This document shows, piece by piece, positions 3,495 to 17,119 of a stretch of DNA of 64,000 bases. A program made the position numbers and the translations under genes. The stretch comes from a bacterium (lineage in GTDB: Bacteria; Chloroflexota; Dormibacteria; Aeolococcales; Bog-877). The first letter of the stretch is position 1. The number at the start of each line of letters is the position of its first letter. The DNA is taken from NCBI GenBank assembly GCA_021816695.1, contig JAKAXE010000001.1:67344-131343 (forward strand), given 5' to 3'. Under the pieces are notes generated by a model. That model was not told the DNA's origin, searched no databases, and saw only the letters and a list, made by a program, of their open reading frames with translations.

Positions 3495-4160
3495 CTACTT
3501 GCAGACCCACTCCGACGACTCCCCGATGGAGAACATCTTGGCGGCGATGTCGGCCTGCTGGGTGGGGTTCCAGATGTCCGTGCCTCCGTGGCCGTAGAAG
3601 GTGGCGGGCATGAACTGGAAGAGGCCGCTGGCCCCGGAGTACCGATTGACGTCCGTGGGGTCAAGGCCGGACTCGCACTGTGCCACCCCGAGCAGCCAGG
3701 TGTAGGACACGTTGTACTTCTGGGCGGCGGCCCAGATGATCTGCTTGATGGTCCCGATGGGCGGCTCCGGCACCGGCTGCCAGAAGGCATTGCCATAGGG
3801 GAGGGATGGTTGGGGCGGCGGCGGCGGGGTCACCTTGGTCACGGACAGCGGCATCGTGATCTGGTAACCGGTGCTGCTGAGGAGGTTGCGGCCCTGGCCC
3901 GCGACCTGGGCCACCAGCGCCGGGGCGGGGGATTGGGGGCCGACCGCCTCTCCGGTGCTGAGCGCTCCCAGCACTGGGGCCAGCGCCGCCAGGCAGAGGG
4001 CGGCCGCTCCCCACCGCAGCCTCGAGGCCAGCCGGGGCCAAGCTCGGCGCTGCGCCGGCGCCGACGGCGCCAGCGTCAGCTCAAGCGGGGCCGTATATGA
4101 AACCCAGGTACCCTGCGCCATCCTGTATCCATCTGTAGTCGACTCGATCCCACCCGCCAC
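3495..4160 (-). CDS. Secreted lytic transglycosylase (SLT domain)
   Basis: Has the VAQCESGLDPTDVNRYSGASGLFQFMPATF SLT signature and an N-terminal signal-like segment (RLRWGAAALCLAALAPVLGALS). The true start is probably internal, because the ORF overlaps the upstream CHAP gene. Confidence 0.7.
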   Translation of the reverse strand: MAGGIESTTDGYRMAQGTWVSYTAPLELTLAPSAPAQRRAWPRLASRLRWGAAALCLAALAPVLGALSTGEAVGPQSPAPALVAQVAGQGRNLLSSTGYQITMPLSVTKVTPPPPPQPSLPYGNAFWQPVPEPPIGTIKQIIWAAAQKYNVSYTWLLGVAQCESGLDPTDVNRYSGASGLFQFMPATFYGHGGTDIWNPTQQADIAAKMFSIGESSEWVCK

Positions 4161-5049
4161 CCGGGACGCCGTAGAAGTTCATCTCCGAGACCTCGAAGGA
4201 ACCGGGCTTGACCGCCACCACGTAGGCCACGTGACCGTAGCCCCAGCTCTCGCCCGGAACGTCGATGCCCCACACCACGATCGACCCCACCTCGGGGGTC
4301 TGGCCCTCGGCATATCCCGCCGCCGCGGCGTTGGCCCACCACTGGTAGGCGTTGCCACCCCAGGTAACCTTGCGCTGGCTGGCGACCCACCAGGTGCAGT
4401 CGCCGAAGGCGAAGGACCAGCTCCCGGTGCCGACGGCCGGCTGGGGGGTGGTCAGCTCGGCCAGGAGCTGCTGGGAGCGCTGACCCAACTGCGCCTGGGC
4501 GACCATCGACTGGCTCTCGTCAGCCCGCAGTTGCGCGGTGGCGGCAGCCACAACCTGCTGGTCGTGCTTGATTGTCCCCACCAGCTGGGCGACCTGGGAG
4601 GCCACCGCCGACGGGAGGGCGGTGCTGGCCAGGAACTGGGCCAGGTTGGGCGCGGCCAGCGCCTCCGCCACCTGCTGGCTGCCGCTGCCGTCCACGTAGG
4701 CAGTGGACACCAGGTTGGTCAGCGCGACCTGATCTCCCGCCATCTGGCGCTGGAGCGTCGCTGAGGTCGCCTGGTCCGCAGCCAGCTTGGCGTTCAGCTG
4801 CTTCAAATAGCTCTGCTCCGACTCAATCTGGGTCAGGAGCGCCATCACCTGGCTCTGAGACGCCAGGTCGCCCTGGGCTCGGAGCTGGTTCAGAAGCTGG
4901 GTCAGTTGGGCCTGGTCACCGGCGAGTCCCTGCTGGGCGCTGGTGTTCGGACCTGGCCCCAGCACAGCGGAGATCCAGACCAACCCGGCCATCGCCACAG
5001 CAATCGAGACGCGCCCAATGGCTTGGGCTCCGCGCATACGTCCTCCCAC
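4081..5049 (-). CDS. Secreted CHAP-domain peptidoglycan hydrolase with N-terminal coiled-coil region
   Basis: Signal/TM (VSIAVAMAGLVWISAVLG) is followed by a Q/A/L-rich heptad-like region. C-terminal CHAP features are GDCTWWVA...GHVAYVV...LGFIYGP. Confidence 0.75.
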   Translation of the reverse strand: MGGRMRGAQAIGRVSIAVAMAGLVWISAVLGPGPNTSAQQGLAGDQAQLTQLLNQLRAQGDLASQSQVMALLTQIESEQSYLKQLNAKLAADQATSATLQRQMAGDQVALTNLVSTAYVDGSGSQQVAEALAAPNLAQFLASTALPSAVASQVAQLVGTIKHDQQVVAAATAQLRADESQSMVAQAQLGQRSQQLLAELTTPQPAVGTGSWSFAFGDCTWWVASQRKVTWGGNAYQWWANAAAAGYAEGQTPEVGSIVVWGIDVPGESWGYGHVAYVVAVKPGSFEVSEMNFYGVPGGGWDRVDYRWIQDGAGYLGFIYGPA

Positions 5050-9280: not shown

Positions 9281-9961
9281 TCAGGACGGGGACGGCGGCG
9301 GTGCAGGCCCGTAGACGAACCCGAGGAGGGTCTCAGTCGGACTCCCCGTGGCCCCCGCTGCGACCCCTCTGAGGTCCACATAGGGCGGGGCGGGGCCGGG
9401 AAGCGCCCAGTTGGACTCCGCCACCGTGTACGACCCGTCCGCGCTCACCCCGACCACGAAGGCCACGTGCCCAGGGCCCCGATCTCCGAACACCGCGATC
9501 GCCCCCAGCGCCGGGGAGACGCCGACCGCGTAGCCCGCCGCCGATGCCAGCTCCAGCCACTGTCCCCCATTGCCCCCCAGGAGGCCCTGGGGCGTGTGCC
9601 AGGTGACCAGCCGGCGCGTGGCCACGTACCAGGTGCACTGACCGGTGGAGAACCCCTGGTAGTTGGCGGGGAACGGATCGGGGTGTCCGGTGCAGGCCGA
9701 CGGTTGGACCGCCAGCGCCCCGGGCTCGGGTCCGCACGGAGCCGCCCAGTTTGGAAAGGAGGGCGAACTCGCCAGCACCACCTCTCCCGGCCGCAGGACC
9801 AGCCCCCCAGGATCTGGGAGCAAGCCACCCAGAGCCGGCCACCCGGCAGCCGCCGCGCCAGCGCCCAGCAATCCCACCAGGCTGGCCCCCAGGACCGCTG
9901 GGACCAGGCAGCCCAGGGCCAGAAGGGCACCCATTCCGGACAGCCAGCGCCGGGGACTCAT
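9281..9961 (-). CDS. CHAP-domain cell-wall hydrolase, last gene of the T4SS-like operon (VirB1-like role)
   Basis: C-terminal CHAP features GQCTWYVA...GHVAFVV...LGFVYGP are paralogous to the CHAP protein at 4081-5049. Signal/TM is MGALLALGCLVPAVLGASLVGLLG. ATG at 9961-9959 overlaps the VirB4 stop (ATGA, verified as plus-strand tcat at 9958-9961). Confidence 0.75.
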   Translation of the reverse strand: MSPRRWLSGMGALLALGCLVPAVLGASLVGLLGAGAAAAGWPALGGLLPDPGGLVLRPGEVVLASSPSFPNWAAPCGPEPGALAVQPSACTGHPDPFPANYQGFSTGQCTWYVATRRLVTWHTPQGLLGGNGGQWLELASAAGYAVGVSPALGAIAVFGDRGPGHVAFVVGVSADGSYTVAESNWALPGPAPPYVDLRGVAAGATGSPTETLLGFVYGPAPPPSPS

Positions 9962-12159
9962 GGGGAGTCCGCGGCCAGTTGACCGGTGCTCAGGGCCGGC
10001 CACCACTCTCGAGGAGCGCCCCCTCGGAAGCTGGCGTGCTCATCTCCGGCCAGCACCAGCCCGCAGCCCGGCTCCGCATCTCGGAGGAGCTCGCACTCCG
10101 CGTCGGAGAGCGAGAACGCGCGCCGCACCCCGGGAAGAGCCACCGGCTCCTGGCGGAGGAGCAGCTTGGTATGGCAGTTGCGGATGACCACGTTGCCCAC
10201 GGGCGAGTTGAGGAAGTCCTCGACCACCTGCGAAACCACTAGCAGCCCGGCTCCCAGCTTGCGGATGCGCCGAGCCATGCTCTCCAGGAACCGGGCTCCA
10301 GAGGGAGAGGAGAGCAGGACCTCGGCCTCATCCACGACCACCAGGGTGGGATGCGTGTGCGGGAGCTCGAGGTCCGCCTCCAGATGCCAGAGCACCAGCT
10401 CCATGGCAGTCCCCAGGAGCTCCTCCCGGGCGTGGAGGTGGCGCAGGGAGACCACCAATGCGTCGTCGACGTCGAGTCCGCCGGCGCCGTTGAAGACGCC
10501 TGACCCGGGGCCGGCTGCCTGTCGTTGCAGCCCGGCTGCGAGCTCCCCCTGGCCCGCCTCCTCCAGCTGCTCCAGGACCTCGGAGAGGCCGGCTCTCATG
10601 GGCTGGAGCCGAAGGGCGGTCAGAGCGGCGAGCCTCAGGGCCTCCAGGGAGCTCCTCGAGGTGGCCGACCGGCTCGACGCCAGCAGCCGGCCCAGCAGAG
10701 GAAGTGCCCGGTCGACCCGCCGCTCAGGCTCCTGACCAGGTGGCCCGAGTACATTCAGCCCGCGCTCGTCGGTCGCGCCCAGTTCCAGGCACCGGGCTCC
10801 GAGCAGCGCCCCCAGCTTCAGGTACTCCCCGGCGGGGTCCAGGCACCGTAGACGGCAACCTTGTAGGAAGAGGCGGGCCGCGAGCAGTTTGGAGGTGAAG
10901 GACTTGCCCCCACCGGAGGTCCCCAGGACCAGGATGTTGCGGTTGGGATTGGACTCGGCCAGGGGATCGACGGTCACCAGCTCCCTTGTGCTGGGGCTGG
11001 GTCCGAGGAGCACCCCGTTCCGCGCGTCCAACGTGGCCCGCAGGAAGGGGATCGCCGTGGCGGTGGCTGCGGTCGTCATGTCCCGGGACCAGCCGAGGGG
11101 GTCCACACCCAGCGGCAGCGTGGATCGCCATCCGTCCGCCTGGCGGTTGAACAGCGGAATTGGGGTGCACCCGAGCTCGATGAGGGTGTTCACCACCTGC
11201 TCCCAGCCCAGCTCCATCTCTGCCTGGCTGGATCCCTCCACCGTGATGCAGGTCACCAGCCGCATGAGCCGGTCCTCCTCCAGTAGGACCCGCTCCTCGA
11301 GGGCCAGCGCGTCCTCGAGTGCGGCCCGCGTGCCGGCATCCGGGCGGCGACCCTGGCGCCGGTCCACCTCGAGCCCGGTCTCGAAGGTGCGAATCCGTCG
11401 GCGCAGGTGGCTCAGACTGTGCACCTTGGGCACCGGGTACAGGTGCTGGGCCATCCGGATGGGAGCTGGGGTGGCCAGGACCAGGGGGGCCAGCCACCCC
11501 AGCTGCAGACGGCGGGGGAAGCCGCGCACGACCAGGCTGCGGACCACCCGGTCCGAGAGCTCCAAGCGGTCCGGCCTCACTGTGGCCGTGTCTGGCGCCA
11601 GCCAGCTGGCGAAGCTGGCGGTGGGGCGGCCGCTCCGCCCCCCGGTCAGCTCCTGGAGGATGGACAGCCAATCCCCGTCCTCAAGGGGACGGGGGCGCAG
11701 CCCCGGACCGCTCAAGGCTGCCGCGACCGCTCTCCGGCGCTGGTCCAGCTCGTACGTGCCGCGAGGGCGCACTTGCCCCGGCAGCGCCCCCCGCAGGCTC
11801 GCCGGGGAGTCGTCCCAGATCACTGCCAGGTGTCGGCGAAGGTGCACCTGGCCACTGGCCATGAGCCCCGCCGAGTAGTCGGCGTCGGCGCGCCCGATCG
11901 TGGTCTGCGCCGGTTGAGCTGAGGCGGCCAGGGGCCGGGAGATGGTGTAGAGGGAGACGGGCCCGGAGAGGGTTGAGAGTGCTCGCCAGTAGCGCCTCCA
12001 GACCAACTGCCGCTCGGCGCCGGAGCGCAGCAGGAGGTTCAGGGCGGCCAGTTCCAGCCCGACCCGGCGGCGCCCGTCCCGGAGGCTGGCCACGCCGCCC
12101 TCCAGGTAGGCGACGTCGATGAGGTCCAGGGTGGATCCGACCCGCGAGGGCAGCCTCAT
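9958..12159 (-). CDS. VirB4/TrbE/TcpF-like type IV secretion ATPase
   Basis: Walker A (NILVLGTSGGGKSFTSKLL) and Walker B-like (HPTLVVVDEAEVLL) motifs, ~730 aa. Start ATG at 12159-12157 forms an ATGA with the stop of the upstream small gene. The first ~150 aa of the 883-aa track ORF are rejected as Arg/Pro-rich read-through overprinting that small gene. Confidence 0.85.
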   Translation of the reverse strand: MRLPSRVGSTLDLIDVAYLEGGVASLRDGRRRVGLELAALNLLLRSGAERQLVWRRYWRALSTLSGPVSLYTISRPLAASAQPAQTTIGRADADYSAGLMASGQVHLRRHLAVIWDDSPASLRGALPGQVRPRGTYELDQRRRAVAAALSGPGLRPRPLEDGDWLSILQELTGGRSGRPTASFASWLAPDTATVRPDRLELSDRVVRSLVVRGFPRRLQLGWLAPLVLATPAPIRMAQHLYPVPKVHSLSHLRRRIRTFETGLEVDRRQGRRPDAGTRAALEDALALEERVLLEEDRLMRLVTCITVEGSSQAEMELGWEQVVNTLIELGCTPIPLFNRQADGWRSTLPLGVDPLGWSRDMTTAATATAIPFLRATLDARNGVLLGPSPSTRELVTVDPLAESNPNRNILVLGTSGGGKSFTSKLLAARLFLQGCRLRCLDPAGEYLKLGALLGARCLELGATDERGLNVLGPPGQEPERRVDRALPLLGRLLASSRSATSRSSLEALRLAALTALRLQPMRAGLSEVLEQLEEAGQGELAAGLQRQAAGPGSGVFNGAGGLDVDDALVVSLRHLHAREELLGTAMELVLWHLEADLELPHTHPTLVVVDEAEVLLSSPSGARFLESMARRIRKLGAGLLVVSQVVEDFLNSPVGNVVIRNCHTKLLLRQEPVALPGVRRAFSLSDAECELLRDAEPGCGLVLAGDEHASFRGGAPREWWPALSTGQLAADSP

Positions 12160-12554
12160 TGGCAGGAGGTGGCTCCCGAGGGCATGGTCCAGGAGATGGG
12201 CGAGGTCTCCGCACCGTCGACGTCGCGGAACTCCGCACGCGAACTCACCAGGTCCGGATGGCTCAGCCGCCTGCGCTGGGCCCGGAACCGCGCCGCGTCC
12301 AGGAGGTAGGCATCGAGCCGGCGGCCTCGGCGGCTGCCGAAGCCCAGAACGACGCAGCCGGCCGCCCACGGCACGGCCCCGGTCAGGGTGGCGTCCAGGC
12401 CGCAATGGGCGTGGATCAGGATCATCGGCAGGACGGCCGCTCCGCTGAGCCAGCCCAGCTGTGGGGTGGTCAGCCCGCCCCAGCGGCTGGGCACGTCGGA
12501 GATGGGTTGCGGTACTTCGGCCTCCATCATGTTCGCCTGGTTTGGTCCCGCCAA
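12156..12554 (-). CDS. VirB3/PrgI/TcpE-like small membrane protein (candidate)
   Basis: 132 aa with two adjacent TM helices (LGWLSGAAVLPMILIHAHCGL, TGAVPWAAGCVVLGF). Sits immediately upstream of, and ATGA-coupled to, the VirB4-like gene, which is the canonical VirB3 position in T4SS operons. Confidence 0.5.
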   Translation of the reverse strand: MAGPNQANMMEAEVPQPISDVPSRWGGLTTPQLGWLSGAAVLPMILIHAHCGLDATLTGAVPWAAGCVVLGFGSRRGRRLDAYLLDAARFRAQRRRLSHPDLVSSRAEFRDVDGAETSPISWTMPSGATSCQ

Positions 12555-14650
12555 CGGCCGGGCTGGGGCTGAAGCCTGCCGCGGCGCAGGGAGTTGAGGT
12601 AGGCCACATCCAGGCTATGGACCGCCGGACCTCCCGCGGCGGCGTACCTGGTGCCGAGGTCGTGGAGGGCCTCTCCCAACTCCGGGCCTTCGGCCAGGGA
12701 CTTGATCGCCGCGAGGTCTCTGGGGGTGAGCCCGGTCAGCCGGACGAGCTCCCGCTGGCGTCCCCCATCCCACAGGAGCTGGCGGCCGAGAAACTGCTCT
12801 CTCGTCTCCCGTCCGTCGACCGCCGGCCACCCACCGCCGGCTCCTGGGACCGCACTCTCGAGCCTGGTGGCGAGGTCCTCCTCTGGCCTCCCGGGCAGTC
12901 CCAGGGCGTGGGCGGCCCGCCCACCCCAGCGGGAGCCATAGCGCCGAGCCTGGGGGATGGCGGTGGTGGCCGCCAGAAGTGAGCCGCCGAGCACCGTACC
13001 CACAGACAGCTCAGCCAGGGCTCTTACCCGGCGGGTGGTGGACATCTCGCCCCGGCTGATTCGTCCCGGCACCTCGACCATGAGGAAGACCGTCACGGCG
13101 GCCAGCAGACACTTGGCGAACTGGTCCCCGGGGTTCCCGCTCCCCACCTCGGCCAGCAGGCCGCCCTGGGCCGCGGCGCAGCTCGAGTGCGTGGTGGGGG
13201 AGATGAAGGGGCAGGACCCGTGGGCAGCCACCGGGGCCAAGCCGGACACGGTGGAGACCACCGCCACGAACGCCAGGAAGATGAGGGTCTGGACCACCAC
13301 CACGGCCGAGAGCGACGCGACCGTGGCCCAGTAGCGGTTGAAGAGGGTGCGGCCCCCCGGCAGCGCCAGCGCCACGAAGGCCAGGCTGGAGCAGGCGGCC
13401 AGGAGCGAGAGGACGATGAATCGGGCCAGGTAGGTCAGCGCCAGCCACAGGCCGAGCCCGGTGAGGGCGGTGAAGGCCACCATCCCCATCAGCCCATCGG
13501 GGACGTCGTAGCCGTTGCGCCCGTGGGGCCCGACCCCGGCCCAGACGTCGGTGAAGGTGGGCGTCGTCCCCCAGTAGATGTCCGCATAGCGGCAATCGGC
13601 AGGGCTCTGGCCGTCTCCCGCCCGAGGCTCACCCGGTAGGGGAAGGACCCCCAACTGGAGGGACCCGATGGTGGAGCTGCCGCTGCCCTCCAGGCAGTTC
13701 TGGCCCTGGTTGTTGTTGACCTGGTTGTCGGTGTTGGTGCAGAGGGGCTGGCCGGGGGATGCATCGCCGCGGTCGCAGTTGGCGTCATGGAGCGGGGGGC
13801 CGAAATAGTTCTCGCTGCGGTCCAGGACCTCCTTGGTGAAGTCGGGGCTGGACACCCCGATGCAGTGCGACTGCGTGAAGGACCGGTCCATCCAGGGGTC
13901 GACCAGGACCTGCTGGCGCGGGCTCGGGCCCGGGAGCGAGAGATGGATGCCCGGGTGGATGATGGGACTGTCCTCCGGGCAGTAAGCGGTGACTGCGAGG
14001 ACGGTCATCATGTCCAGCGGGGCGGTCCCCGAGCCGCCCAGCCGGTGGAAGGTGGCCTCCAGAATGCCCTGGGACACCCAGCTCCCCATGTCGATGACGC
14101 GTCCCGCCAGGTGCAGTGGGAGCCCGGCCCCCAGGACTGCAGCGGCGATCAGGCAGGGCACGATGCCGGCTCTGAGATTCAGCTGCTGCCCGGCCATGAA
14201 GAGCGACACCTGGAGAGCGAAGGCGACCACGATCAGCGCCAGGGACAGCGGCTCAAGGACCGCGTTCATCTCCTGGACCCAGGGGATGCACCCGGCAGGA
14301 CCGCACTGGTGCGCCGGCTCACCCAGGCTCCCGTCGTAGTTGTCCACCACCGGGTTGGTGCCCACCAGGGTGGTGATCAGGTGCCAGGGGCCCGAGGTCA
14401 CCGCCCCGGTCAGGGGGTCGATGTGGGCCGGGTCAGGACTCCCGTCGAGGCTGCCCATGATGGCCACCGGCCCGGAGACGAACGCATCGATCACGTAGCA
14501 GAAGGGATCCGTGATCCCCCCGCACTGCTGGCTGTCGCTCCCGGCGGAGGCTGCCGCCGCGGGGGGAGTCGGGGTGGGCTGGGCGAGGGTTGCCGGAGCG
14601 CTCCCGGCGGAGAGCAGGTGCCCGGCCAGGACGACCACGGCAGCGGACGG
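12527..14650 (-). CDS. VirB6/TrbL/TcpH-like polytopic T4SS membrane protein with Cys-rich extracytoplasmic regions (candidate)
   Basis: Signal-like start (AAVVVLAGHLLSAGSAPATLA) and at least 6 TM helices. Cys pairs sit in predicted external loops (QQCGGITDPFCYV, HQCGPAGCIPW, NCDRGD...PLCTNT). The track ORF runs to 15103, but that N-terminus overprints the pilin-like gene and is rejected. Exact start near 14650 is unresolved (GTG at 14638?). Confidence 0.5.
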   Translation of the reverse strand, partial: PSAAVVVLAGHLLSAGSAPATLAQPTPTPPAAAASAGSDSQQCGGITDPFCYVIDAFVSGPVAIMGSLDGSPDPAHIDPLTGAVTSGPWHLITTLVGTNPVVDNYDGSLGEPAHQCGPAGCIPWVQEMNAVLEPLSLALIVVAFALQVSLFMAGQQLNLRAGIVPCLIAAAVLGAGLPLHLAGRVIDMGSWVSQGILEATFHRLGGSGTAPLDMMTVLAVTAYCPEDSPIIHPGIHLSLPGPSPRQQVLVDPWMDRSFTQSHCIGVSSPDFTKEVLDRSENYFGPPLHDANCDRGDASPGQPLCTNTDNQVNNNQGQNCLEGSGSSTIGSLQLGVLPLPGEPRAGDGQSPADCRYADIYWGTTPTFTDVWAGVGPHGRNGYDVPDGLMGMVAFTALTGLGLWLALTYLARFIVLSLLAACSSLAFVALALPGGRTLFNRYWATVASLSAVVVVQTLIFLAFVAVVSTVSGLAPVAAHGSCPFISPTTHSSCAAAQGGLLAEVGSGNPGDQFAKCLLAAVTVFLMVEVPGRISRGEMSTTRRVRALAELSVGTVLGGSLLAATTAIPQARRYGSRWGGRAAHALGLPGRPEEDLATRLESAVPGAGGGWPAVDGRETREQFLGRQLLWDGGRQRELVRLTGLTPRDLAAIKSLAEGPELGEALHDLGTRYAAAGGPAVHSLDVAYLNSLRRGRLQPQPGRWRDQTRRT

Positions 14651-14655
14651 CCGCC

Positions 14656-14943
14656 TCAGGGGCCGCTCGCGGAACAGGTGGCGGTGGCACAGGCGGTGTT
14701 GCTGCCGGTCAGCCCCTCGACGAAGGTCAGGATGGCTCCTTCGTTCACCAGCAGGAGCACGCCCAGGAGGACGGTCACCAGGCCCTGGATGGCGGCCGCC
14801 CGGCGCTGGCTGTTGTCTAGCGAGGTCATGTAGCGGATAGCCGCGAAGCTGAGGCACAGGACCGCTACCGCCCCCAGGGCCAGGGTGGTGACCGTGTGGA
14901 TGAGGTTGTTGAGCCCGGTCGCGAAGGTCGCCAGCTCCGTCAA
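14656..14943 (-). CDS. VirB2/TrbC-like pilin candidate (95 aa, two-TM hairpin)
   Basis: TTG start at 14943-14941. Two hydrophobic helices (HTVTTLALGAVAVLCLSFAAI, IQGLVTVLLGVLLLV) and a short Cys-containing tail. Sits between VirD4 and VirB6-like genes, with its stop at 14658-14656 directly abutting the VirB6-like start. Confidence 0.45.
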   Translation of the reverse strand: MTELATFATGLNNLIHTVTTLALGAVAVLCLSFAAIRYMTSLDNSQRRAAAIQGLVTVLLGVLLLVNEGAILTFVEGLTGSNTACATATCSASGP

Positions 14944-16493
14944 CGAAGCTCACCCCGGGGCTGAGCCCAGGCGATCGGACGCGGCCCATCTGCGATGGCG
15001 ATGGGCCGCCCCTTGGCCGGTCGGGGCATGCGCTCAAGGTCCGCCCCTGCGCCGGCCGCCGCTCGCATCCTGCGGTCGCCATACCAGGGAAGCTGGCGAA
15101 CAAGTGCCGGGTGGTCGCTGCCCCGAAGGATCAGGGCTCGCCCGCGCCGGAGGCGCCTGATCTCATCCGGCGGCAGATGCGGGTGGGCCTGTACGGGGTG
15201 GCCGCCCCCCGCGGAGTGCAGGGTGGCCGAGCCAACCAGACGGCTGGCCCGTTCCAGCAGGTCTACCTCCGAGATGCCGGGCAGGAGGAGCTTCGTCCGG
15301 CAGTTGGCCCAGAGTGCGGTCACGGCGTCGGCCCCGTAGAGGGTCGAGATGGACGCGACGTCTTGGGCCAGCAGCACCAGTCGCACCCCCTGGGTGCGGC
15401 CCAGCTGCACCAACGACGGCAGCTCGGGCAGGGTCGTCAGCTGGGCGAACTCGTCCAGGACGAAGAGCACGGGGAGCGCCGGCGGGCTGGCATACACCGC
15501 CCGCCAGCAGGCGGAAAGCAAGGCGCTCAGCAGTCCCCGCACCAGGGGAGCGTCGGTGGGGCTGACCACGCAGTAGAGGCTGTTCAGCTGACCGCTCGCC
15601 AAAGAGCGCGGATCGAAGGTGCTCCGGGAGGTGGTCCGAGCCACCTGATCGCTGCCGAACACCCCCAATTTAGACACCAGGGTGGCGACCACCCCCATGG
15701 CCGTGCGGTCCCCGCCGCTCAGTGCGCCCTGGACCAGCTGCCGGGCCAGCGGATGGCTGAGCTCCTCGACCACCTCCTCCGCCGGGACTTGCTGCAGTAG
15801 GGCCAGGAGGTCACTCAGGGTCAGACCTGAAGCGGCGGCCTCCACCAGCAGCCCGTGCAGCAGCTGAAGCGCCAGGTCGTGCCAGAACGGTTCACGCTCC
15901 GGCGGGCGGCCGAGAAGGAAGCCGGCGCTGCGCAGCGCGTCGTCCGAGCTGGAGATGGCGCTGATGGGGTTCCAGCCATCCCCGGGCTCCATGAGGGGGG
16001 CGAAGACGGCGGCTCGGCCTCGCCGCTCCCGGGCCATCAGGGTCCGGGCCAGCAGCTCCCCCTTGGGGTCCGTGACCACCACCGGGCCGGGCCACTCGAG
16101 GATCGCGGGAATCGCCAGCGCGCTGGACTTCCCCGACCCGGTGGGGCCCAGCACCAACAGATGCTCGTCCTCCGGCAGTCGGACCGTCACCGGCCCGATC
16201 CGTCCCAAGCGGACGCGTGCCCCACCCCCATGCCAGAGCCGGCGGAGCTCAAGGAGGCGGGCGGTGCGTGCCCCCCCCAGCGTCCCGGGGCGAAGGGAGG
16301 AGCGTGGACGGCCGAGCCAGATGAGCGCCGCAGCGGCCAACACCACCCCGAGGGTGGCAGCCAGGCCGGTCAGCCGCGTCCCCGTTGGTGGGCCGCCCAT
16401 GACCCCCTCGCGCATCGCGCCGGCCACCACCGCCGCTCCCACCACCGCGGCCGGCAGCAGCAGCCAGAGCAACTCCTCCTGCCTCTTCTCCAC
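14940..16493 (-). CDS. VirD4/TraG/TraD-family type IV coupling protein (T4CP)
   Basis: Two N-terminal TM helices are followed by Walker A (HLLVLGPTGSGKSS), VTDPKGE and Walker B (VLFVLDEFAQL) motifs, 517 aa. Confidence 0.85.
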   Translation of the reverse strand: MEKRQEELLWLLLPAAVVGAAVVAGAMREGVMGGPPTGTRLTGLAATLGVVLAAAALIWLGRPRSSLRPGTLGGARTARLLELRRLWHGGGARVRLGRIGPVTVRLPEDEHLLVLGPTGSGKSSALAIPAILEWPGPVVVTDPKGELLARTLMARERRGRAAVFAPLMEPGDGWNPISAISSSDDALRSAGFLLGRPPEREPFWHDLALQLLHGLLVEAAASGLTLSDLLALLQQVPAEEVVEELSHPLARQLVQGALSGGDRTAMGVVATLVSKLGVFGSDQVARTTSRSTFDPRSLASGQLNSLYCVVSPTDAPLVRGLLSALLSACWRAVYASPPALPVLFVLDEFAQLTTLPELPSLVQLGRTQGVRLVLLAQDVASISTLYGADAVTALWANCRTKLLLPGISEVDLLERASRLVGSATLHSAGGGHPVQAHPHLPPDEIRRLRRGRALILRGSDHPALVRQLPWYGDRRMRAAAGAGADLERMPRPAKGRPIAIADGPRPIAWAQPRGELR

Positions 16494-16645: not shown

Positions 16646-17119
16646 ATGCCCCGTTCTCCCCTCGCCCCCACCCGTCACCAGGGGGCGAGGACCATTCTGG
16701 TCGCTGACCGAGACCTCCGGTCCCGCACCGCCACGTCCGCGATCTTGCGCCGTCTGGGATTCGAGGTGGCCGAGGCGGAGTCGCCCCGCTCGGCACTCGC
16801 CCAGGCCCGCTCCGGACCCTACTCCTGCGCCATCCTTGACCTGAACATCTCGGAGGCCGGCGCCTTCGATCTCTGCCGCCGGCTGCTCTCGGCTCCGGGC
16901 TGGAGCTGGACCCCGGTGATCTTCACCAGCTCGCGCCCCCCCGAGCCCGAGCAGAGGGACACGCTCCAGCAGGGCGGATTCACGTTCCTGCTCAAGCCGT
17001 TCCGCTCCGGGCAGCTCCTCTCAGCCGTGGGCGATGCCCTGGCCGCCACCACGCCGTTGCGTGAATCCCGGCCCGATCGGAGGCGGGCGCTCTCCACCGT
17101 CGAGGCCGCCACCGCCTGA
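16646..17119 (+). CDS. Single-domain CheY-like response-regulator receiver protein
   Basis: ILVADRD (acidic pocket), phospho-acceptor context AILDLN, conserved T/S and LLKPF lysine. There is no output domain. Confidence 0.75.
   Translation: MPRSPLAPTRHQGARTILVADRDLRSRTATSAILRRLGFEVAEAESPRSALAQARSGPYSCAILDLNISEAGAFDLCRRLLSAPGWSWTPVIFTSSRPPEPEQRDTLQQGGFTFLLKPFRSGQLLSAVGDALAATTPLRESRPDRRRALSTVEAATA

Follow-up and report, generated by a model that had tools for sequence, protein, structure and literature searches.

Organization of the operon

The window is a 64,000-nucleotide stretch of bacterial DNA. Its minus strand carries a six-gene type IV secretion system (T4SS) operon in the order VirD4, VirB2-like pilin, VirB6-like, PrgI-like, VirB4, and CHAP hydrolase. 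We examined the fourth gene, which lies directly upstream of VirB4. The features are as follows, with their evidence in parentheses.

9281..9961, minus strand: CHAP-domain peptidoglycan hydrolase gene, 226 aa, VirB1-like in role (Pfam CHAP, 1.3e-16)
9958..12159, minus strand: VirB4-family ATPase gene, 733 aa (Pfam, NCBIfam, ortholog N termini and lengths)
12156..12159, minus strand: ATGA overlap of the PrgI-like stop and the VirB4 start, a probable translational-coupling junction (sequence)
12156..12530, minus strand: PrgI-family (VirB3-like) gene, 124 aa (GC3, dN/dS, called orthologs, Pfam PrgI, hhalign, AlphaFold2 model)
12160..12609, minus strand: spurious 150-codon N-terminal extension of an 883-aa ORF in the ORF track, noncoding (GC, dN/dS, start lost in relatives, stops)
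12527..12530, minus strand: ATGA overlap of the VirB6-like stop and the PrgI-like start (sequence)
12527..14638, minus strand: gene for a VirB6-like polytopic membrane protein, about 703 aa, with a Cys-rich loop (position and topology only)
14656..14943, minus strand: VirB2-like pilin gene, 95 aa (Pfam, NCBIfam, GC3)
14940..16493, minus strand: VirD4/TraG-type coupling protein gene, 517 aa (Pfam, junction)

Four of the five junctions in the operon are 4-nt overlaps. The VirD4 stop and the pilin start share TTGA, and the VirB4 stop and the CHAP start share ATGA. VirD4 matched Pfam T4SS-DNA_transf (6.5e-41), TrwB_AAD_bind, and TraG-D_C. The pilin matched Pfam T4SS_pilin and NCBIfam Mbov_0395 pilin-like (E, 3.5e-5 and 1.7e-4, both below cut-off), and its frame has a GC3 of 0.92 versus 0.63 for the overlapping extension. 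This gene, 2 kb upstream of the PrgI-like gene, is likewise hidden in the ORF track by an over-extended ORF, in this case of 858 aa (12527..15103). The VirB6-like protein has about six hydrophobic segments and matched no Pfam or NCBIfam family and no VirB6 HMM. Its start is approximate, with relatives called at 655 to 707 aa, and its place upstream of the PrgI-like gene is conserved in relatives.

VirB4 matched Pfam P-loop_TraG, AAA_10, and DUF87, all above the Pfam cut-offs, and NCBIfam CD1110-type VirB4 (E, 1.3e-48), the latter match falling short of the 325-bit equivalog cut-off. It carries the P-loop ATPase domains of the VirB4/TraC type together with an N terminus conserved among orthologs. 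The orthologs called in the phylum are all 717 to 770 aa long, some are named VirB4 family by NCBI, and their N termini align with ATG 12159.

Coding status of the two overlapping frames

The ORF track holds an 883-aa ORF (9958..12609, minus strand) and, in a different frame, a 132-aa ORF (12156..12554, minus strand). A preliminary description of this DNA held that the smaller ORF is a real gene overlapped by an over-extended VirB4 ORF, and it named GC3 beforehand as the refutation test. We found that GC3 favored the small frame, at 0.87 versus 0.61. The small frame has a frame-specific composition (GC1/2/3, 0.68/0.59/0.87) resembling that of the securely established operon genes, such as the VirB4 body (0.75/0.52/0.87). 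The values for the long frame over positions 12160 to 12609 are 0.83/0.71/0.61. In comparisons with five orthologs, substitutions clustered at the third positions of the small frame. Its dN/dS was 0.27 to 0.40, that of the other frames exceeded 1, and the long frame gave 1.5 to 2.5. Purifying selection is confined to the small frame, where a dN/dS of 0.3 to 0.4 represents moderate constraint only.

The long frame also fared poorly in related genomes. Its ATG at 12609 reads ACG in relatives, and in 15 of 21 related genomes the VirB4 frame is closed by a stop 18 to 70 codons upstream of the conserved VirB4 N terminus; one of these genomes has a VirB4 that is 89% identical. In the window, 192 codons of the long frame precede ATG 12159 without a stop. 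The frame is also open in the closest relatives, over 181 to 279 codons in the six closest genomes, and therefore openness alone cannot discriminate. Openness was uninformative in the six closest genomes and decisive only in more distant ones. As described earlier, the 883-aa ORF opens with about 150 residues rich in Arg, Pro, and Gly (14.7%, 16.7%, and 14.7%). This shadow frame, 12160..12609, covers the PrgI-like gene together with the final 27 codons of its VirB6-like neighbor. We concluded that the 883-aa ORF is not a gene product and that its opening 150 codons represent an alternative frame, poor in stops, of coding DNA that is 70% GC.

The boundaries of the small gene were set by comparison with relatives. 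At its 3' end, TCAT at positions 12156 to 12159 of the plus strand is ATGA on the minus strand, and the TGA of the small ORF shares bases with the ATG of the VirB4 body, just as the preliminary description had it. An NTGA start at this 4-nt overlap is present in 17 of the 21 related genomes; in the remaining four, a TAG stop is combined with a candidate VirB4 start that overlaps by 10 nt. VirB4 is called from the overlap at 730 to 733 aa in close relatives, and at one locus (L005) it starts 9 nt after the small-gene stop. At the 5' end, we rejected TTG 12554 as the start codon. It is TTC in close relatives, and ATG 12530 (or its neighbor ATG 12527) is the start conserved among the relatives compared, at an ATGA or TGATG overlap; TGATG, a 1-nt overlap, occurs in distant relatives where the window has the ATGA of the VirB6-like and PrgI-like genes. 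Because the conserved start is ATG 12530 and not TTG 12554, the gene is 12156..12530 and encodes 124 aa (the small-frame peptide reads MMEAEVPQPISDVPSR...). Every element of the preliminary description is present in the sequence, and its interpretation is supported with the one correction that the gene has 124 codons and not 132; positions 12555 to 12609 form the 3' terminus of the VirB6-like gene.

Orthologs of the small gene are called at 123 to 124 aa in public assemblies. The public gene calls for exactly this sequence already hold the 124-aa and 733-aa proteins, the former as a "hypothetical protein," and contain neither the 132-aa nor the 883-aa version. The gene had been called hidden, which is true of the naive ORF track but not of the public calls. 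Because public assemblies already call the 124-aa and 733-aa proteins, we regard the 883-aa ORF as an artifact of that track. Standard gene callers already resolve the small gene and the over-long ORF, and the finding is correct but ordinary. Taken together, the frame statistics and the ortholog comparison indicate that 12156..12530 on the minus strand is a genuine protein-coding gene with these boundaries.

Assignment to the PrgI family

We compared the 124-aa protein and its family with profile libraries. The window protein matched Pfam PF12666 (PrgI) over model positions 2 to 88 of 91 at 26.3 bits (E, 1.1e-5), 0.7 bit under the gathering threshold of 27 bits. All nine close family members matched PF12666 at an E value of ≤0.01, as did 13 of 18 phylum-wide members at ≤1e-4 (best, 4.4e-9), and orthologs exceeded the threshold. 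A search of 1.8 billion representatives with the family profile retrieved P0017 (E, 9e-4), a bona fide PrgI-domain protein that scores 67 bits against PF12666. By hhalign, the family aligned with a probability of 96.2% to P0017, of 91.7% to a PGAP-annotated "PrgI family protein" encoded one gene ahead of the nearest plasmid-borne VirB4, and of 90.9% to the N terminus of a natural PrgI-VirB4 fusion. The matched region includes the nonhydrophobic N-terminal T..Q motif and the G(R/l).LD..l motif that follows the transmembrane (TM) segments of the PrgI model. The orthologs and the family profile are thus recognizably PrgI.

Other profiles contributed little. In the Pfam scan of the window protein at an E value of ≤1, PrgI was the only match, with neither proteobacterial VirB3 nor TcpE (PF12648) found. 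NCBIfam SCO6880_fam gave a weak N-terminal match (E, 0.0026), and the family profile found only chance matches (E ≥ 1) among PDB sequences, with no sequence match to a solved structure. Of the three profiles that had been proposed for comparison, PrgI was borne out (Pfam, and hhalign probabilities of 92 to 96%), and VirB3 and TcpE were not. The VirB3-like label of the 124-aa protein holds at the level of the PrgI family, the monoderm counterpart of VirB3, and within this known family the protein is a routine addition. The link to proteobacterial VirB3 and TcpE runs through analogy and the PrgI family only.

Predicted architecture and proposed function

Hydropathy analysis gave two adjacent hydrophobic stretches, at residues ~20 to 42 and ~46 to 65. 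An AlphaFold2 model built from 9 close sequences was unusable (pLDDT, 53); a usable core came from a 16-sequence alignment, with helices predicted at residues 22 to 40, 45 to 64, and 72 to 84 and a pLDDT of 86 to 92 over residues 21 to 80. The two adjacent TM helices read from the sequence earlier agree with both. The conserved N-terminal motif AEVPQPIS..P.RWGG.T..QLGW precedes the hairpin, a GRR.GRRLD motif follows the two predicted TM helices ahead of the third helix, and the C-terminal tail (~30 residues) is variable. A Foldseek search of the PDB with the model gave a best E value of 1.5 and no T4SS, VirB3, or TrwM chain among 31 weak matches, a comparison of low power for a 60-residue helical hairpin.

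VirB3 homologs have been defined as proteins of 10 to 15 kDa with two TM helices and a C-terminal helix, encoded next to and partly overlapping virB4 with virB6 upstream (PMC12857230). The protein studied here has 124 aa, two predicted TM helices, and a modeled C-terminal helix. Its gene has an ATGA overlap on both sides, and the gene order is the same in 21/21 related genomes. This anatomy and gene placement fit the published description, and the position directly upstream of VirB4 that had been called canonical is found throughout this set.

The analogy to VirB3/TrwM and to the PrgI-PrgJ model makes a helical hairpin the most likely form in which the protein enters the membrane. VirB3-like proteins bind the VirB4 N-terminal domain 1:1 (PMC12857230), and by the same analogy the 124-aa protein most likely binds that domain and would tether the ATPase to the membrane translocon; the fusion of homologous domains to VirB4 in P0098 and P0103 supports such binding indirectly. 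Because the start of the small gene overlaps the VirB6-like stop and its stop overlaps the VirB4 ATG, ribosomes finishing one cistron probably re-initiate on the next. Such re-initiation would keep the amounts of membrane anchor and ATPase at a constant ratio. We infer the translational coupling, the membrane topology, and the binding to VirB4 from these features.

Alternative explanations

We weighed three other readings of the locus. If the 883-aa ORF were the true VirB4, with a disordered Arg/Pro/Gly-rich N terminus, the 132-aa ORF would be a chance frame of high-GC DNA. Chance ORFs of such size are abundant in high-GC windows, and the 192 open codons upstream of ATG 12159, together with the open frame in the closest relatives, fit this idea. 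We rejected it on the GC content of the frame (GC3, 0.61; GC2, 0.71), its dN/dS, and its stops in 15 of the 21 genomes. The start codon lost in relatives, the coincident N termini of orthologs no longer than 770 aa, and the conserved homologs and Pfam match of the small frame also argue against it, and we consider it extremely improbable. Both frames might instead be translated, through true overprinting or through a programmed frameshift yielding a PrgI-VirB4 fusion. Natural PrgI-VirB4 fusions exist in metagenomes (P0098 and P0103), and VirB3-VirB4 fusions have been described in some systems (PMC12102498). The reading frames of the two genes are also offset identically in 21/21 genomes, but this constant offset follows directly from the NTGA overlap. 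We found no slippery heptamer at the PrgI-like/VirB4 junction CTGCCAATGAGG; the long frame shows no separate constraint, stops break it in most relatives, and four relatives have the TAG stop with a different overlap. Frameshifting or fusion was rejected on the missing slippery site and the unconstrained frame, and we find translation of both frames very unlikely.

It could also be that the small gene is real but encodes an unrelated two-TM protein, such as an accessory or assembly factor particular to the lineage, that resembles PrgI only by hydrophobic composition. Composition can inflate matches of TM segments, the window protein scores just under the Pfam threshold, and neither a VirB3 or TcpE match (Pfam, E ≤ 1) nor a fold match (Foldseek against the PDB) was obtained. 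Against this, the match spans the whole PrgI model, including its T..Q and G(R/l).LD..l motifs, orthologs score above the threshold, and the profile pulls the 67-bit PrgI protein from 1.8 billion sequences. The place between the VirB6-like gene and VirB4 is canonical (PMC12857230), and homologous domains are fused to VirB4 elsewhere (P0098 and P0103). We judge a chance resemblance improbable. All of these data taken together make it very probable that the locus is best explained by a gene for a PrgI-family inner membrane protein coupled to VirB4, with the 883-aa ORF not being a product.

Comparison with known systems

One close counterpart is PrgI of Enterococcus faecalis pCF10, the VirB3 counterpart of the MPF-FATA class (PF12666). 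It has 117 aa, compared with 124 here, and two TM helices followed by a further helix, as is predicted here; its gene lies between prgH (VirB6-like) and prgJ (virB4) and partly overlaps virB4 (PMC12857230). The HMM match spans the whole family model, yet the window protein is very divergent in sequence, with a score 0.7 bit below the Pfam cut-off. Unlike pCF10 PrgI, the Dormibacterota protein has a lineage-specific tail of ~35 residues after the third helix, and its operon lies on the chromosome and not on a conjugative plasmid, in a conserved housekeeping setting where no relaxase was seen close by.

The long PrgI proteins of actinomycetes (WP_331738713.1 of an Embleya plasmid, the SCO6880 family, and P0017) align with the family over their N-terminal 90 to 100 residues (hhalign probability, 91.7 to 96.2%). 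The Embleya gene also lies upstream of a VirB4, the nearest plasmid-borne relative of the window VirB4 (39% identity). These proteins differ in having 350 to 480 aa with a large extra C-terminal region, whereas the protein here is a minimal 124-aa domain. A replication-relaxation (relaxase-like) gene is present in their clusters, where the T4CP lies downstream of VirB4, a gene order different from that of the operon studied here. Proteobacterial VirB3 (Agrobacterium VirB3 and R388 TrwM) and pCW3 TcpE share with the window protein a small two-TM inner membrane design, a gene next to virB4, and, by analogy, the role proposed here. Some systems fuse this subunit to VirB4, as P0098 and P0103 do. 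In contrast, these proteins show no detectable Pfam similarity to it at an E value of ≤1, and solved T4SS structures gave no Foldseek match to its model.

The T4SS of Patescibacteria (CPR), such as that of "Ca. Southlakia epibionticum," has the same kinds of parts: a monoderm-type VirB4, PrgI/VirB3, VirB6, a VirB2-like pilin (PF18895), VirD4, and a cell wall hydrolase. It is also chromosomal and generally lacks an adjacent relaxase (PMC12102498). It differs in having arrays of pilin paralogs, compared with one pilin gene here, and we saw no TrsD-like gene.

Conservation and significance in Candidatus Dormibacterota

The small ORF lies directly upstream of VirB4 in 21/21 Dormibacterota genomes (hmmsearch E, 1e-26 to 1e-79). 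The same housekeeping genes flank the operon in each of the 21 Candidatus Dormibacterota genomes recovered, with VirB4 identity down to 46%. Pilin identity is 82 to 100% across the phylum, far more conserved than the ATPase. No relaxase was seen near the operon. The nearest VirB4 relatives outside the phylum in our search were from Actinomycetota (31 to 37%). The nearest plasmid-borne VirB4 was at most 39% identical over 59% of the query, and therefore the operon is not a recent acquisition from a plasmid or an integrative and conjugative element (ICE). A literature search for a Dormibacterota T4SS found no description, the phylum being mentioned only incidentally in a Patescibacteria paper.

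For annotation, the result has modest value: VirB4 is 733 aa and not 883 aa, and a publicly "hypothetical protein" can now be labeled a PrgI/VirB3-like subunit. With this label, the inventory of the inner membrane translocon parts of the operon is complete. The locus is also a textbook case of longest-ORF tracks absorbing small upstream genes in 70%-GC DNA, with the pilin gene hidden by the same artifact.

The wider context of the operon could matter more than the annotation of the gene itself. Dormibacterota, an uncultured phylum of soil bacteria, has its place beside Patescibacteria, and its members are regarded as free-living and not as epibionts. We suggest, tentatively and as a possibility that we hold to be rather less than even, that the PrgI-like gene is part of a vertically inherited, chromosomal, relaxase-less T4SS that is a core feature of Candidatus Dormibacterota. 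In that case, the apparatus would work for the host in some way other than the conjugation of plasmids or ICEs; taking up or releasing DNA, mediating cell-cell contact, and exporting proteins would be examples. Dormibacterota being a neighboring Terrabacteria lineage of Patescibacteria (PMC12102498), the system would then correspond, in free-living bacteria, to the essential T4SS encoded on the chromosome of the latter, and it would bear on whether that T4SS arose by horizontal acquisition or by inheritance from a common Terrabacteria ancestor. A T4SS that is syntenic across Dormibacterota and apparently has no relaxase would give a point of comparison for both the origin and the function of the Patescibacteria T4SS.

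Codon statistics favor the small frame upstream of VirB4

The window has a G+C content of 70%, and the mechanical ORF list contains two ORFs in different frames at the start of VirB4:

9958..12609 (-), 883-aa ORF running into the VirB4 body
12156..12554 (-), 132-aa ORF

The preliminary description proposed that the small ORF is a VirB3-like gene with two adjacent transmembrane (TM) helices, hidden under a VirB4 ORF that had been extended too far. As it had stated, the start of the 883-aa ORF is rich in Pro (16.7%), Gly (14.7%), and Arg (14.7%) over residues 1 to 150. We also confirmed the junction with the VirB4 body. Positions 12156-12159 of the + strand are TCAT, which reads ATGA on the - strand, and the TGA of the small ORF overlaps the ATG that opens "MRLPSRVGSTLDLIDVAYLEGG...".

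In this genome, the reference genes (the VirB4 body and VirD4) have GC1/GC2/GC3 values of about 0.75/0.52/0.87. We found values of 0.68/0.59/0.87 for the small ORF and 0.83/0.71/0.61 for the long ORF across 12160-12609, and the latter pattern is typical of a real gene being read out of frame. GC3, which had been named beforehand as the refutation test, favored the small frame (0.87 versus 0.61). We then aligned the codons of the small gene with those of five orthologs (protein identity, 94 to 60%). Most substitutions fell at third positions of the small-gene frame, with a dN/dS of 0.27 to 0.40, while the identical DNA read in the long-ORF frame gave 1.5 to 2.5.

We searched species-representative genomes with the VirB4 protein and obtained 21 loci, labeled Candidatus Dormibacterota/Dormibacteria or unclassified metagenome-assembled genomes (MAGs), with VirB4 identities of 46 to 94%. 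The VirB4 frame is stopped inside the small gene, 18 to 70 codons upstream of the conserved N terminus, in 15 of these loci, including one whose VirB4 is 89% identical to that of the window. In the six closest loci the long frame stays open, as expected because high-GC DNA is stop-poor; the ATG at 12609 is ACG in close relatives, even where the long frame is open. VirB4 orthologs in the protein collection are 717 to 770 aa long, and their N termini align at ATG 12159. These ortholog lengths and N termini, together with the codon-position GC, the dN/dS values, and the stops, exclude a true 883-aa VirB4. Dual coding of the region or a programmed frameshift is likewise unsupported: no slippery site is present, and the long frame shows no constraint and is broken in relatives.

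The small gene starts at ATG 12530 and is resolved in public gene calls

TTG 12554 was rejected as the start of the small gene; it is TTC in close relatives. The conserved start is ATG 12530, which is directly followed by another ATG (12527). The start at 12530 and the TGA that ends the upstream gene share a further ATGA, and in more distant relatives this junction is TGATG. The small gene is 12156..12530 and encodes 124 aa rather than 132.

In public gene calls, the orthologs are genes of 123 to 124 aa, and VirB4 of the closest relatives is 733 aa long and starts at the overlap. Called genes with exactly the 124-aa and 733-aa sequences of the window are already on public record, from an NCBI contig of 162 kb, and the 132-aa and 883-aa versions are absent from these records. 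Thus, the small gene was swallowed by the longest-ORF track and is "hidden" only there. NCBI names a member of its 90%-identity cluster "hypothetical protein."

The small protein resembles PrgI

The sole Pfam family found for the small protein was PrgI (PF12666), which aligned over model positions 2 to 88 of 91 (E, 1.1e-5) with a score of 26.3 bits, 0.7 bit below the curated cutoff. All nine close homologs match PrgI, as do 13 of 18 phylum-wide members at an E of ≤1e-4 (best, 4.4e-9). We searched a profile of the close homologs against 1.84 billion representative proteins and obtained nine proteins in all, six of which match PrgI below threshold. The search also retrieved a 439-aa protein (P0017) that scores 67 bits on PF12666. 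By hhalign, the phylum-wide alignment matched P0017 with 96.2% probability and an Embleya plasmid protein, annotated by PGAP as "PrgI family protein," with 91.7%. The plasmid-borne VirB4 nearest to that of the window is encoded one gene downstream of the gene for this Embleya protein.

Among the distant homologs of the window's VirB4, two proteins from metagenome contigs, P0098 (960 aa) and P0103 (1079 aa), have an N-terminal PrgI domain fused to the VirB4 homolog (precomputed PF12666 plus P-loop_TraG). The family alignment matched their PrgI parts at 73.8% and 90.9%. These monoderm-type analogs of known VirB3-VirB4 fusions support a functional link between PrgI and VirB4.

Predictions agreed with two adjacent TM helices: hydropathy gave two hydrophobic stretches side by side, and an AlphaFold2 model (16 sequences) had helices at residues 22-40, 45-64, and 72-84, with a pLDDT of 86 to 92 over residues 21-80. 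Working criteria for VirB3 homologs are a mass of 10 to 15 kDa, a pair of TM helices, and a helix at the C terminus, with the gene adjoining and partly overlapping virB4 and virB6 upstream (PMC12857230); the features of the small gene and its protein agree with these. In prgH-prgI-prgJ of pCF10, a virB6-type gene is likewise upstream (PMC12857230).

We found no Pfam match to proteobacterial VirB3 or TcpE at an E of ≤1, no sequence match to solved structures, and no significant Foldseek match with the model. Because these searches were all negative, we set aside membership in the proteobacterial VirB3 family and filed the protein as a divergent PrgI-family member that would work like VirB3. The VirB3-like reading holds as far as the PrgI family. 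There is a small possibility that this is an unrelated two-TM protein, given its score slightly under the Pfam cutoff; against this, the PrgI match takes in non-hydrophobic motifs flanking the hairpin on both sides.

The gene lies within a six-gene T4SS operon

The operon reads, in order of transcription:

14940..16493 (-), VirD4-type coupling protein
14656..14943 (-), VirB2-like pilin, 95 aa (Pfam T4SS_pilin; E, 3.5e-5; GC3, 0.92)
12527..14638 (-), VirB6-like protein, about 703 aa, with a start near 14638, about six hydrophobic segments, and a Cys-rich loop
12156..12530 (-), PrgI-like gene, 124 aa
9958..12159 (-), VirB4
9281..9961 (-), CHAP hydrolase

At four of the five junctions, the stop and start codons overlap by 4 nt. 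For the PrgI/VirB4 pair, this overlap contains an in-frame start codon in 17 of 21 genomes, and the other 4 have a candidate start overlapping by 10 nt. Such an arrangement may allow termination-reinitiation coupling, and the anchor protein and the ATPase would then be made in stoichiometric amounts. TrwM-TrwK and the PrgI-PrgJ model (PMC12857230) suggest, by analogy, that the small protein would form a membrane hairpin binding the N-terminal domain of VirB4.

The pilin region, 2 kb upstream, contains a second longest-ORF artifact. An 858-aa track ORF (12527..15103, - strand) is over-extended by 155 codons (GC3, 0.63) across the real pilin gene and the 3' end of VirD4.

The operon is in a conserved housekeeping neighborhood

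All 21 Candidatus Dormibacterota genomes obtained (L011-L031) have the operon (9281..16493, - strand) in one and the same housekeeping neighborhood, down to 46% VirB4 identity. The block order (PBP1, response regulator, six T4SS genes, [MFS], 189-aa gene, UbiA, hemE) is identical in every locus spanning it; the short loci L017 and L025 cover only part. Beyond hemE are a second CHAP gene and an SLT gene, where the locus extends that far. Among the called genes of the 10-kb flanks on both sides, none had a relaxase domain. The conserved synteny and lack of a nearby relaxase suggest a vertically inherited chromosomal T4SS rather than a mobile element. The nearest VirB4 outside the phylum is from Actinomycetota (31 to 37%), and the nearest plasmid-borne VirB4 is 39% identical at most.

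Identity to the window is 82 to 100% for the pilin, 62 to 97% for CHAP, 46 to 94% for VirB4, 40 to 94% for the PrgI-like protein, and 65 to 96% for the VirB6-like protein (48% for a fragment at the end of L025). The pilin-like protein remains 82 to 100% identical where VirB4 is only 46 to 54% and the PrgI-like protein 40 to 48% identical, which is an unusual constraint ranking for T4SS parts.

A stand-alone response-regulator receiver gene (16646..17119, + strand), divergent from the VirD4 gene and kept in all related loci reaching that far, may regulate the operon. The second CHAP-domain gene and the SLT transglycosylase gene, which encode 305 and 159 aa, respectively, lie some 4 kb beyond the operon on its downstream side (3495..4998, - strand). 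They keep their position in the related genomes with loci long enough to include them and may work with the T4SS in cell wall remodeling or be unrelated to it. L026 (DATLTJ010000047.1) and L031 (DATKSV010000050.1) are from MAGs labeled Candidatus Acidiferrales and Candidatus Nanopelagicaceae, respectively; because they have full synteny with the Dormibacterota loci, the two labels seem to be errors of binning or taxonomy.

The Dormibacterota system recalls the T4SS of Patescibacteria, which is chromosomal and mostly relaxase-less (PMC12102498); that lineage has been placed beside Chloroflexota and Dormibacterota (PMC12102498). We found no described T4SS of this kind in Dormibacterota in the literature searched. 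Apart from the start codon, which had to be corrected, the small-gene finding is right and was soundly argued. It is also ordinary: a longest-ORF artifact that standard gene callers resolve, in a known family at its canonical position. What deserves attention of its own is the phylum-wide chromosomal T4SS.
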